Assembly (NCBI GenBank): GCA_902767375.1
Contig: CACXGV010000048.1
Span: 1-46,987, forward strand
DNA from: an uncultured Erysipelotrichaceae bacterium
Lineage (GTDB): Bacteria > Bacillota_I > Bacilli_A > RF39 > UBA660
Length of the DNA stretch: 46,987 bases
Reading direction: 5' to 3'
Shown: piece by piece, positions 43,575 through 46,987 of the stretch
Position numbering within the stretch: the first letter of the stretch is position 1
Layout: each line of letters opens with the position of its first letter
Notes under the pieces: model-generated
Seen by the model: the letters and a program-made list of their open reading frames with translations, nothing else
Databases searched by the model: none
What the model was told of the DNA's origin: nothing
Program-made: the position numbers and the translations under genes

Positions 43575-43622
43575 CTTAACACCTAATTAAAGTATATCAA
43601 ATTAATTATTATTTGTGAACTA

Positions 43623-43772
43623 TTAACATACTCTGCCCGTACGATATCTATTTAATGATGAGCCAATTGCGCGGCCTACTTCTAATAGAATTGATAGAAT
43701 TCTAGAGATGGAGTTTAAAAGATTACCATTTACTTCCCCGCCAGTTATTTTTGCCATATCTTTATCAGCCAT
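43623..43772 (-). CDS. Double-glycine-leader peptide B, 49 aa (not in ORF track)
   Basis: MADKDMAKITGG|EVNGNLLNSISRILSILLEVGRAIGSSLNRYRTGRVC*; ATG overlaps the peptide A stop region by 8 nt. Confidence 0.8.
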   Translation of the reverse strand: MADKDMAKITGGEVNGNLLNSISRILSILLEVGRAIGSSLNRYRTGRVC

Positions 43773-43902
43773 TGCACTTCATTGGCCTAAAGTATCCGTC
43801 TATGATTCCAGCTATGAGACTAAGTCCAGCCCCAAGTATGGCATATATTATCCAACCTTTTCCACCGCCAGTAATATTTTTCATTTCTTTATCTTTAAGC
43901 AT
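43765..43902 (-). CDS. Double-glycine-leader peptide A, 45 aa, class IIb bacteriocin-like (not in ORF track)
   Basis: MLKDKEMKNITGG|GKGWIIYAILGAGLSLIAGIIDGYFRPMKCNG*; SD AGAAAGGA; overlaps the transporter stop by 8 nt. Confidence 0.88.
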   Translation of the reverse strand: MLKDKEMKNITGGGKGWIIYAILGAGLSLIAGIIDGYFRPMKCNG

Positions 43903-45862
43903 TTTCTTCCTTTCTAGCAGTTATTTTAATTATTCGATCAAATGAATAGTTCTCTAAATTATGGCTTACATATATTATTAATTTGTCTTTATAATAATTA
44001 TTTATATTATAAATAATCTTATTACGTAAATTATAACTTATTTCAGATAGGGATTCATCCAATAGTAAAATTTCTTTATCTTGATATAGATTTCTAGCTA
44101 GTATTATTATTTGTTCTTCTCCCCTACTTAAATTATTATCGATAATTGAGTTTAATTTATAATTTTTTTTATTAATAATTTTTTCTATGTATAATAGTTT
44201 AATTATAGTTAAGAATTTATTTTTGTGATACTTTTTATTTAATATAATGTTGTTTATGATAGTATCTTTAAATAGGATATCTTTGTTACTCGAATAAATA
44301 AGATGTTTTTTTATGTCTAGGTTTCTAATATCTTGATTATTTATGGTTATAGTGCCTTCATAATTAGTTATATTTTTACTTATGATATTTAATAATGTTG
44401 ATTTTCCAATCCCATTTGGGCCTTTTATTAATATTTTCTCTTTAGGTTTAATGGTTAGGTAATAATTTTGAAATATTATATTATTATTTATTTTATAACC
44501 TAAATCCTTAATTTTGATATTACCAATTTTAAAGCCTTTTAAGGGTTTTTCTTCTTCAATGTAGTAAATACCATTAATTCTGTCAATTATGCTTTTAAAA
44601 TGGTTTAAATTGCTTAATAGACTATTAAAATATGTTAAACATTCATTATAGTAGCCATATAAAAGAATTATTATAATAATATTAGACAAGTTGTTATTAT
44701 AATTATATATAAATATAAGGACTAATAAAATATCATTAAATATATTATTAATAACAGATAATTTATTTAAATATATATCTAAAGAATATGATTTAATGTT
44801 ATTATCCTTAATATCCTTTTTTAGAATACTTAAAAAATGGTTTTCTAAATGAATATTTTTTATATTAATAAGACTATTAATATATTCAATTAACATATTA
44901 TTTAAGCTACTTTCAGAATCTAAATAGTTTAGATAGTTTGTAAATCCTTTTTTATTAAGTAAATAATAAAATATGATATAAATTATTGATACTACTATTA
45001 GTATTATAGTAAGCTTATAATTTAAATGGTAAAACAATATTAGTATTATGATAAATGAGAATAAGTATATAAAAGAATTTACTAGCTCTTTTATATATAA
45101 ATTCTTGATACTTTGTAAATCATTAATACGAGATATTATTTCTCCGCTACTTTTTAACTGCAAATATGATGAAGGTAAGAAAAAAACATGTTTTAAGTAA
45201 TTATTGATAATCTTAATATTATTATTTTTATCTAAATGCGCTAGTAAAATATTTTTTAAATATATTAAGACATTCTTACTTAAAGCTAGAATTATAAAAA
45301 CAGGTAATTTTTGATAACTTGTTATTAGTGATTTTAGATTGTAAGTATTAATTAATGAAAATAGTATTACCATTATACTTAATAATAAAATAATTATTAT
45401 TTGTAAGTATTCTTGTTTAATGTATGTTTTTATATTATCAAAGAAGTAATTATTCTTCTTATATTTAATTATTCTGTTAATTGGTAAAAGTTTTAATACA
45501 TTTCCAGTTGAAATATTATTATACTCAGTGCTGGACATTTTAACTAATCCTTTAGCAGGGTCCATACATAGATAATAATTATTTTCATTTTTATATACTA
45601 CAATGAAATGATAATAACCATTTTCTAGAGTTTGAACAATATATGGTGGTTTTATTTCTTCTTTATAATATCCATATACTTCAAAGCCGTATCTTTCAGC
45701 AGCCTTTTTTAAATTATAAAAATTTGTTCCTTTATTAGTAGTTAAAGTATCTAACTTTATAATTTCTAGTGGAACAAAGCCACCATAATATTTAATAATT
45801 GATAAAAGACAACTTGCACCACAATCATTATTATCATTCTGCTTTACAATATATTTTTTCAT
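43895..45862 (-). CDS. C39 peptidase-containing ABC transporter (PCAT)
   Basis: QNDNNDCG (Cys), YHFIVV (His), DPAKG (Asp); TMD; GPNGIGKST, LSRGE, LLLDE, VSH. Confidence 0.92.
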   Translation of the reverse strand: MKKYIVKQNDNNDCGASCLLSIIKYYGGFVPLEIIKLDTLTTNKGTNFYNLKKAAERYGFEVYGYYKEEIKPPYIVQTLENGYYHFIVVYKNENNYYLCMDPAKGLVKMSSTEYNNISTGNVLKLLPINRIIKYKKNNYFFDNIKTYIKQEYLQIIIILLLSIMVILFSLINTYNLKSLITSYQKLPVFIILALSKNVLIYLKNILLAHLDKNNNIKIINNYLKHVFFLPSSYLQLKSSGEIISRINDLQSIKNLYIKELVNSFIYLFSFIIILILFYHLNYKLTIILIVVSIIYIIFYYLLNKKGFTNYLNYLDSESSLNNMLIEYINSLINIKNIHLENHFLSILKKDIKDNNIKSYSLDIYLNKLSVINNIFNDILLVLIFIYNYNNNLSNIIIIILLYGYYNECLTYFNSLLSNLNHFKSIIDRINGIYYIEEEKPLKGFKIGNIKIKDLGYKINNNIIFQNYYLTIKPKEKILIKGPNGIGKSTLLNIISKNITNYEGTITINNQDIRNLDIKKHLIYSSNKDILFKDTIINNIILNKKYHKNKFLTIIKLLYIEKIINKKNYKLNSIIDNNLSRGEEQIIILARNLYQDKEILLLDESLSEISYNLRNKIIYNINNYYKDKLIIYVSHNLENYSFDRIIKITARKEENA

Positions 45863-45878
45863 TTCTCACCCTCTAAAA

Positions 45879-45914
45879 CTTATATTAACGATAAACTGGG
45901 GATTTCCTTTTTTC
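45879..45914 (-). promoter_or_regulatory. sigma-H-like promoter of the PCAT-peptide operon
   Basis: AAAGGAAAT-N12-GTTAATATAAG; second copy at 46738-46772. Confidence 0.6.
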
Positions 45915-45939: not shown

Positions 45940-45968
45940 AAAAACTGCGTTTTATTTACGCAGTTTTT
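45940..45968 (-). terminator. Intrinsic terminator after the CmpB-family gene
   Basis: AAAAACTGCGT-loop-ACGCAGTTTTT. Confidence 0.8.
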
Positions 45969-46644
45969 TTCTTTTTGAGAAATCTTTTTTTAAGCTCTTT
46001 AATCTTTCAACTCTCCTTGGATTCTTTTCAATATATGGGAAAGCATCAAATAATCTTGTTCTAATACGATTTATTTTTATATTATTATTCTTGGTATATT
46101 CATTTAATATAGTATCTAAGTGACCAGCAATATTATTGGTCCTAATAATATTTATAATACTAGCAGTACTATCTGCAATTAAGATAATTATTATAATTAG
46201 TGAAGCTATCATTCTAGTTTTAGCGGGAATAGATAATACAAAAGCAAATATATATTGATTTGCCAAGTAAATAGTAAATAATCCTCCCACTCCAAAAAGA
46301 GTACTATTTAGAAGACATACTCTTCCATTAATATGATATTTTCGATAGGAATAATCCCACCATTTTCGTTTGAATATTTTTTCAAGGGCAAAACTTGTAA
46401 AATATTCTACACATGAACAAATTATAAAACTGAAAGTAAAAACTACTATCGGATCATTATAATAACCAGTAAGAAGAAAAGTAATTAAAACTCCGCCCAC
46501 TCCATAAATTGGAAGATATGGGCCAATTAAAAAACCTCTATTTACAAGTTTTTTAGTTCTAAAGTATACAAATAATGTTTCGGATATATACCCAATAACA
46601 CAGTAAATAAAGAAAATTAAAAAGTAATAATAGAAATCTTTCAT
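45952..46644 (-). CDS. CmpB-family ('putative ABC transporter permease') membrane protein; start probably 46644
   Basis: NRGFLIGPYLPIYG, WWDYS, NGRVCL; SD AGGAG before MKDFYY; TTGATA-17-TAATAT promoter upstream. Confidence 0.85.
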   Translation of the reverse strand: MKDFYYYFLIFFIYCVIGYISETLFVYFRTKKLVNRGFLIGPYLPIYGVGGVLITFLLTGYYNDPIVVFTFSFIICSCVEYFTSFALEKIFKRKWWDYSYRKYHINGRVCLLNSTLFGVGGLFTIYLANQYIFAFVLSIPAKTRMIASLIIIIILIADSTASIINIIRTNNIAGHLDTILNEYTKNNNIKINRIRTRLFDAFPYIEKNPRRVERLKSLKKDFSKRKKLRK

Positions 46645-46737
46645 ATTAATCTCCTTTAATAAAATATTACTATTTTGATCATAATTTATCAATAAGTTTT
46701 CAACAAAATGGTTTTTTTATCAACAAATTTAGTTTTA

Positions 46738-46772
46738 GAAAAAGGAAATTATTATCTAATAGTTAATATAAG
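46738..46772 (+). promoter_or_regulatory. sigma-H-like promoter upstream of the 18-aa ORF and spoIIIAH-like gene
   Basis: AAAGGAAAT-N12-GTTAATATAAG, same spacing as the PCAT copy. Confidence 0.6.
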
Positions 46773-46825
46773 TTGTAGAGGTAAAGAAATACCTCTGGTG
46801 CGTTAGTAATAGTTAGGAGGTAAAA

Positions 46826-46928: not shown

Positions 46929-46987
46929 ATGATTAATAAACAAAAATTATGGTTTTTAACGTTATTCAGTTTAATATTAGTACTTGC
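46929..46987 (+). CDS. spoIIIAH: SpoIIIAH-like protein, 5' end only (truncated by the window)
   Basis: SD GGAGG; MINKQKLWFLTLFSLILVL resembles the SpoIIIAH N-terminal anchor (KKQTVWLLTMLSLVVVL). Confidence 0.7.
   Translation, partial: MINKQKLWFLTLFSLILVL

Follow-up and report, generated by a model that had tools for sequence, protein, structure and literature searches.

A peptidase-containing ABC exporter and two short double-glycine peptides form a conserved locus in an order of genome-reduced gut bacteria

Introduction

What is the cargo of a C39-type ATP-binding cassette (ABC) exporter whose gene is followed directly by two very short open reading frames (ORFs), and what is that cargo for? 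The question is raised by a stretch of 46,987 nucleotides (hereafter the window) from an uncultured Erysipelotrichaceae bacterium (GTDB lineage Bacilli_A; RF39; UBA660; contig CACXGV010000048.1 of assembly GCA_902767375.1). A preliminary description, made from the sequence alone, had taken the two ORFs for the precursors of a two-peptide bacteriocin of class IIb. The three genes in question are as follows.

43895-45862, minus strand: peptidase-containing ABC exporter (PCAT), 655 amino acids (ORF listing and Pfam).
43765-43902, minus strand: peptide A precursor, 45 amino acids; leader 43864-43902 (13 amino acids), mature part 43768-43863 (32 amino acids).
43623-43772, minus strand: peptide B precursor, 49 amino acids; leader 43737-43772 (12 amino acids), mature part 43626-43736 (37 amino acids).

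The best overall explanation, to which we give an even chance of being right in full, is that PCAT-A-B is an operon making a membrane-active pair of helical peptides of the class IIb type. No description of a PCAT-A-B system was found in the literature. What is contributed here is its prevalence across an order, measurements of selection, promoter statistics and a natural knockout.

Peptides A and B

The two small ORFs had been described as chained to the exporter gene by 8-nt overlaps. These are exact: PCAT and A share 43895-43902 (ATGCTTAA), and A and B share 43765-43772 (ATGGCTGA). The 3′ end of the PCAT gene contains the ribosome-binding site of peptide A, AAGGAAG. B is separated from the next gene, cca, by 48 nt, and the operon has no other ORF.

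Both leaders, MLKDKEMKNITGG in A and MADKDMAKITGG in B, have the residues of the double-glycine consensus at the positions claimed for them, hydrophobic at −12, −7 and −4 and acidic at −8, followed by GG. Mature A (GKGWIIYAILGAGLSLIAGIIDGYFRPMKCNG) has a Kyte-Doolittle 19-mer mean of 2.06, a net charge of +2 and the motif GIIDG; for mature B (EVNGNLLNSISRILSILLEVGRAIGSSLNRYRTGRVC) the helical moment over 18 residues is 0.65, the net charge is +3 and the motif is GRAIG. The earlier characterization of A (32 residues) as hydrophobic and of B (37 residues) as amphipathic thus holds. Using AlphaFold2 with family alignments, each precursor was modeled with a short helix in the leader and, after a break at GG, a single long helix, which spans residues 15-43 in A (mean predicted local distance difference test score, pLDDT, of 83) and residues 13-45 in B (mean pLDDT 78.5). 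Peptide A is accordingly predicted to be a hydrophobic, glycine-rich helix of transmembrane type and peptide B an amphipathic cationic helix.

A single GxxxG motif is present per partner, G32xxxG36 in A (54 sequences) and G33xxxG37 in B (50 sequences), and it is invariant in both, as expected from the earlier claim that both partners carry one. The residues that are invariant among the A sequences are Gly at −1, G32, D35, G36, R39, P40 and C43; those among the B sequences are Gly at −1, G33, G37 and C49. Exactly one Cys is found per mature peptide in 52 of the 54 A and 48 of the 50 B sequences, and it follows GxxxG at a spacing of 7 residues in A (53/54) and of 12 residues in B (48/50). Leader length is 12 to 13 amino acids in the window and 11 to 16 over the family. 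Since several orthologs read AG rather than GG at the cleavage site (L008 and L025 for B; L040, L044, L078 and L081 for A), the exporter must accept Ala at −2.

A and B are not called paralogs here: alignment of the two families with hhalign covered 32 columns at 28% identity, with clear similarity in the shared leader alone.

The exporter

Domains of the exporter were assigned as follows.

45494-45856, minus strand: C39 cysteine-peptidase domain, residues 3-123, with Gln8, Cys14, His85 and Asp101 (Pfam).
44705-45400, minus strand: ABC transmembrane domain, residues 155-386 (Pfam).
44051-44470, minus strand: ATP-binding domain (Pfam and an alignment of 53 PCATs).

The 655-residue protein matches Peptidase_C39 (PF03412, E = 5.8e-23), ABC_membrane (PF00664, E = 9.2e-19) and ABC_tran (PF00005, E = 4.5e-22), which confirms the earlier assignment as a C39 ABC exporter. 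An N-terminal C39 domain with its catalytic residues, followed by transmembrane and nucleotide-binding domains, is the arrangement by which PCATs are recognized, and on these grounds the protein is classed as one. Among the 53 aligned PCATs, His85 is kept in all, Gln8 and Cys14 in 48 (in the remaining five the start was mis-called and the alignment has a gap there) and Asp101 in 51, the other two having Asn. The ATPase motifs of the window’s protein are Walker A GPNGIGKS, signature LSRGE, Walker B ILLLDE and the H-loop histidine H634; Walker A and B are conserved in the alignment, as are S579/G581 and H634. Due to this conservation of catalytic and ATPase motifs, both the protease and the ATPase look active.

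The best-scoring named model in NCBIfam was NF045998 (the Mbov_0121 family of mycoplasmas), with 239.8 bits over the full length; bacteriocin_ABC reached 190.2 bits, under its cut-off of 523.85. The source organisms of NF045998 are, like the window’s bacterium, genome-reduced members of the same class, but a score so far below the cut-off of 500 means that the exporter does not belong to this family. With both scores under their cut-offs, it is a PCAT of no named subfamily. It has the same three-domain architecture as PCAT1 of Clostridium thermocellum, known in complex with its cargo CtA (PDB 7S5J; PMC8794836), but it is shorter, at 655 amino acids, and the cargo is unrelated. The A and B leaders align to the CtA leader ELTDEELMEMTGG, weakly (E about 0.8), and profile searches of PDB sequences returned nothing beyond this leader and chance matches.

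When the six frames of the whole genome (1,054,087 bp, 27.7% G+C) were searched with a regular expression for the leader, the A and B ORFs were the sole matches. None of the other ABC matches listed in the genome spans a C39 region. Because A and B are the only small ORFs with such a leader and no second C39 exporter was matched, the exporter appears to be dedicated to these two peptides.

Residue 580 of the exporter (44126-44128, minus strand) is an unusual Arg in the signature, LSRGE, where 50 of 53 orthologs read LSGG.

Conservation and selection

The six-frame search for PCAT covered 40 relatives, including 23 other genomes of the same genus. A full-length ortholog (39-53% identity) was found in 20 of these 23, and two more contained pieces cut by contig ends. 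Conservation of the small ORFs over related metagenome-assembled genomes (MAGs), which the preliminary description had named as a test, was borne out: all 20 genus loci that were fetched carry an A ortholog 3′ of PCAT and a B ortholog 3′ of A, counting the AG cleavage-site variant of L008. In nearly every locus A and B either overlap or meet without a gap.

Ratios of non-synonymous to synonymous differences per site (pN/pS) were obtained from Nei-Gojobori counts on close species pairs.

L019/L020: A, 0.04; B, 0.02 (17 synonymous, 1 non-synonymous); PCAT, 0.24.
L011/L013: A, 0.11; B, 0.00; PCAT, 0.16.
L009/L012: A, 0.03; B, 0.16; PCAT, 0.31.

From the low ratios and the conservation it follows that A and B are genuine coding genes, under purifying selection stronger than that on the exporter. 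Over 39 loci the mean pairwise distance was 0.42 for mature A, 0.57 for the downstream gene (mostly cca) and 0.63 for PCAT. The divergence of PCAT tracks that of its downstream neighbor (Mantel r = 0.80, p = 0.001).

Distribution

When 185,579 species genomes were scanned for the motif of A, 170 were found to encode the peptide, nearly all of them uncultured MAGs from gut, rumen or digesters. They are labeled mostly as Bacilli, Tenericutes, Mollicutes or Erysipelotrichaceae, several as Muribaculaceae or Clostridium (Clostridium sp. CAG:710 and CAG:1000 among them), labels that we take to belong to RF39-type orders. Note that all relatives compared in this work are MAGs. From the scan 80 loci were kept for a wider comparison. 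A was recognized in 79, with PCAT 5′ of A in all 79 and B 3′ of A in about 70.

A profile of B matched 239 of 251 genomes sampled over the window’s order (238 of 250 high-quality genomes), and these represent 110 of 111 genera. Copy number is almost always one, in genomes of 0.6 to 1.6 Mb. A second, often partial, B-like match beside the first was seen in seven genomes (G048, G049, G064, G070, G093, G201 and G203) and suggests occasional tandem duplication of the B gene. Among 300 genomes of the class, B was confined to this order and one further family, whose loci read PCAT, a 158-amino-acid single-pass ORF, an A-like gene and a B-like gene; the matches in mycoplasma-type genomes of that sample were leader-like only. 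Taken together, the locus is best read as an ancient, single-copy, vertically inherited core operon of the whole order.

The 12 genomes of the order without a B match were examined, and a cause was seen for five. In three, PCAT is cut by a contig end. A fourth (G270) also lacks the flanking housekeeping gene trmB, and the region is probably unassembled. In the fifth (G217, locus L118, contig C9, 4500-6900), A is truncated after GVIDGQ, and a gene for a 260-amino-acid Rep-like protein and a ParA gene stand in place of B; B was not found elsewhere in that genome. We read this genome as a natural knockout, which would make the pair dispensable in at least one species.

In a collection of 5.8 billion proteins, the B profile found about 1,540 clusters (90% identity) without a Pfam domain, from MAGs of Bacilli or Mollicutes and named, where they are named, “hypothetical protein”, “bacteriocin” or “bacteriocin-like protein”. 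Neither Pfam nor NCBIfam has a model for this family. Searches of 72,556 plasmids with A and B by tblastn gave chance matches or none, a weak result given that these taxa are hardly represented there.

Comparison with class IIb bacteriocins

Class IIb bacteriocins are defined by adjacent peptide genes with an immunity gene in one operon, double-glycine leaders of 15 to 30 residues, an ABC exporter dedicated to them, a GxxxG motif in each peptide and an activity that needs both (PMC2850506). As with lactococcin G and plantaricins EF and JK (PMC2850506), the two peptide genes of the present locus stand side by side in an operon, the leaders follow the double-glycine consensus, the ABC exporter is dedicated and has a peptidase domain, and the peptides are predicted to be cationic helices of 30 to 40 residues, each with GxxxG. 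Peptide A also resembles the class IIb family of lactobin A and cerein 7B, as judged by profile: model TIGR03949 was matched by 13 of 13 A orthologs of the genus (E up to 1), the best at 1.9e-7. Residues 2-37 of A align to positions 4-45 of the 45 in the model, which covers the leader and the glycine-rich hydrophobic helix; the invariant tail of A, D-G-[YF]-x-R-P-x-K-C-N, falls outside it. PF10439 was matched weakly by 31 of 54 A sequences.

Several observations weigh against assignment to this class. No immunity gene is linked to PCAT-A-B, and leaders of 12 to 13 residues are shorter than the 15 to 30 of the class. The A of the window itself scores 19.1 bits against TIGR03949 (E = 8.4e-4), below the cut-off of 21.5, and B has no relatives among named bacteriocins beyond leader-level matches. 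Whereas bacteriocin loci are typically variable and accessory, this one is order-wide, single-copy, syntenic and apparently inherited vertically, and it is under purifying selection, with mature A more conserved (0.42) than the gene downstream (0.57). It also differs from class IIb operons in that the exporter gene comes first, in that no accessory protein is encoded in the window and in that each peptide has an invariant C-terminal Cys. The gene pair, the leader consensus, the exporter, GxxxG and the matches of A to TIGR03949 therefore speak for the class IIb reading, and the immunity gene, the leader length and the mode of inheritance do not. Because the immunity gene is missing and the leaders are short, we endorse the mechanism proposed for the class and not the label.

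In none of about 100 loci was an immunity-like ORF, a kinase, a regulator or a modification enzyme linked to the genes. Three CPBP/Abi-type genes occur elsewhere in the window’s genome, unlinked to the operon. A modified-peptide reading (lanthipeptide or sactipeptide) was rejected, as no locus has a modification enzyme.

Transcription and translation signals

Signals around the operon were read as follows.

45884-45914, minus strand: promoter-like element GAAAAAAGGAAAT-N12-GTTAATATAAGTTTTAGAGGGTGAGAAATG, with GTTAAT as the −10 (sequence reading).
45863-45878, minus strand: ribosome-binding site of PCAT, GAGGGTGA (sequence reading).
45940-45968, no strand assigned: hairpin flanked by T-runs where a CmpB-like gene ends; it separates that gene from the PCAT operon.
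43591-43619, minus strand: TTCACA-17-TGnTATACT, a sigma-70-like promoter in the 48 nt that separate B from cca (consensus match only).

No terminator was found after B. The pattern AGGAAAT-N11-13-GTTAAT (the AAAGGAAAT-N12-GTTAATA type) has seven copies in the genome, one of them without a following gene. Shortly after five of the other six come a ribosome-binding site and then a gene for 67 or more amino acids, and dnaG and PCAT are among these genes. The sixth, a near-identical box on the spoIIIAH side (at 46743, within 46737-46790, plus strand), precedes an 18-amino-acid ORF only. Further copies lie at (contig:position) C5:4039, C7:11388, C26:15935 (minus strand, before dnaG) and C46:36278.

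Among 51 non-redundant relatives, AGGAWWW is found 46 to 59 nt before the PCAT start in 30, and in 29 of these at 46 to 53 nt. Shuffled controls averaged 4.4 and never exceeded 10; on the reverse strand the count was 4. The SigH −35 consensus of Bacillus is RNAGGAWWW. The −35 box fits this; the −10 is TAAT-like, not GAAT. A gene for a SigH-like sigma factor was matched in the window’s genome below threshold only, at 73.8 bits. Whether the operon has a SigH-type, transition-phase promoter we regard as evenly balanced. The copies across the genome give the impression of a regulon under an alternative, SigH-like sigma factor.

Mechanism and role

We infer the following steps from the genes and their motifs. 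PCAT, A and B would be transcribed from their own promoter as a three-gene operon and would be translationally coupled. The C39 domain would remove each leader behind its double glycine, and the peptides would be exported by the ABC part. Mature A (32 residues) and mature B (37 residues) would then associate via GxxxG in a membrane as a parallel heterodimer of helices and would disturb or gate the permeability of that membrane, as proposed for class IIb bacteriocins. That PCAT cleaves and exports A and B, and that these form a membrane-active, parallel helical heterodimer through GxxxG, is the part that we hold with good confidence.

The role of such a pair is a separate matter. Antagonism against other bacteria is our tentative preference, held at somewhat less than even confidence, because A is homologous to a bacteriocin family and the knockout in G217 shows that the pair is dispensable. 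A function in the producer’s own envelope or development is possible, though we lean against it; it draws on the near-universal single-copy vertical inheritance, the missing immunity gene, the purifying selection and the shared promoter box. A role in signaling is improbable, and a role of some other kind is unlikely.

A self-directed function can be stated more definitely. Exported A and B would insert from outside into the producer’s own membrane as a heterodimer whose job is physiological, for instance to form an ion path or to remodel the membrane at transition phase or sporulation, and PCAT would serve as the machine for maturation and insertion. Genomes pared to about 1 Mb have kept one copy of B in 239 of 251 cases and 110 of 111 genera, next to fixed housekeeping neighbors (cca-dnaD-nth here, rsmD and yqeY elsewhere) and in an operon without an immunity gene. 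Selection is stronger on the peptides than on PCAT, and the conserved SigH-like box is common to dnaG and the transcript on the spoIIIAH side. Some absences of B, moreover, are artifacts of assembly (the three contig-cut PCATs and probably G270, which lacks trmB as well). Such a job for the pair is hard to reconcile with the profile relationship of A to a bacteriocin family and with G217, in which the end of A and all of B have been replaced by a ParA/Rep-like insertion, so that the pair would be dispensable; no partner protein was identified. We know of no precedent for a housekeeping membrane pair exported by a PCAT, which also counts against it, and as an explanation of the whole we consider it rather unlikely. 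A chromosomal PCAT with a developmental role does exist in HetC of Nostoc, which drives heterocyst differentiation (PMC10986499); the comparison is one of role, as HetC comes from an unrelated lineage and has an unrelated cargo.

The single invariant Cys of each peptide, with its rigid spacing, suggests an interchain disulfide, which would fix the parallel orientation, and the fixed spacing is what a parallel GxxxG-packed pair with an interchain disulfide at the membrane surface would require. The predicted average mass of such an A-S-S-B dimer is 7411.6 Da, against 3369.0 Da for mature A and 4044.6 Da for mature B alone. Against a disulfide, neither a DsbA-like gene (PF13462) nor a VKOR gene (PF07884) was matched in the genome, which is 87% complete, and the gut habitat is reducing. 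That the mature product is a covalent heterodimer of this kind, acting not as a weapon but as a core factor under a SigH-type promoter of the transition phase or sporulation, is quite unlikely.

Mature A, B or both could instead be a pheromone sensed by a membrane kinase, in the manner of ComC, BlpC or PlnA, and would then control a density- or stage-dependent program. Double-glycine peptides exported by PCATs do include pheromones (PMC7595303, PMC7018657). The promoter box points to control at transition phase, and the genome has one LytTR-type regulator (233 amino acids, C42:3590-4291, minus strand). This gene, however, is an orphan located on a different contig, where its neighbors are not a histidine kinase but an amidase-like gene and hpf, with secA and smpB nearby. 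As no histidine kinase or regulator stands next to the operon in about 100 loci, and as partnered peptides of 32 to 37 residues with a helix of transmembrane type and an invariant GxxxG are not pheromone-like, we think this very improbable.

Finally, the view that A and B are chance frames or decaying remnants and that the exporter has another substrate, for which nothing was found beyond the ORFs being short and mostly unnamed in public annotation, has virtually no chance of being correct: it is refuted by the retention of both ORFs in 20 of 20 genus loci, by their order-wide presence in hundreds of genomes, by pN/pS (the synonymous excess in B of L019 versus L020 being 17 to 1), by the invariant motifs in both alignments and by A and B being the sole double-glycine ORFs of the genome.

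If the membrane-active pair is a bacteriocin, an entire order of abundant, uncultured bacteria of gut and rumen, with reduced genomes, would have kept it as a core trait in single copy, and no immunity gene is visible. This would challenge the view of bacteriocin loci as accessory genes with fast turnover and would point to a new logic of immunity or target. If it is not, a class IIb-type pair and its PCAT would have been taken over for a role in the producer’s own envelope or development, a new use of this export route. Either way, B founds a large family without a Pfam or NCBIfam model, and the invariant Cys pair offers a simple structural hypothesis that can be tested.

Neighboring genes

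The preliminary description had placed the locus in the core chromosome directly upstream of cca-dnaD-nth, and this position is syntenic over the genus and beyond. Gene order in the genus and nearer relatives is a divergent SpoIIIAH-like gene, sometimes a CmpB-like gene, PCAT, A, B, cca, dnaD, nth and a convergent PBP1 gene. In distant members the neighbors are rsmD upstream and yqeY downstream. Two further genes lie upstream of the operon in the window.

45952-46692, minus strand: CmpB-like polytopic membrane protein, PF06541 (Pfam E = 1.3e-45).
46930-46987, plus strand: start of a SpoIIIAH-like protein, MINKQKLWFLTLFS..., running off the end of the window and divergent from the CmpB-like/PCAT side.

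In distant members an ORF of 130 to 158 amino acids with one N-terminal transmembrane helix lies between PCAT and A (L034, L035, L050, L062, L067, L076, L082, L099, L104, L105, L110, L118 and L120). Four of these ORFs (147 to 158 amino acids) were searched against Pfam and gave no match. As a guess, this single-pass protein could serve as a small accessory factor, an adaptor or an immunity protein; the window’s genus has lost it.

The CmpB-like gene is 5′ of PCAT in most of the genus and missing there in one subclade; in L074, L088 and L097 it lies downstream of A-B. The protein is a possible functional partner or immunity candidate. No tested function was found for PF06541 in the literature.

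The SpoIIIAH-like gene is syntenic in most relatives. A GerE-like gene for a helix-turn-helix protein of 67 amino acids lies near the locus in L009, L015 and L016. From the SpoIIIAH-like and GerE-like genes it follows that sporulation genes are present in a genome of about 1 Mb.

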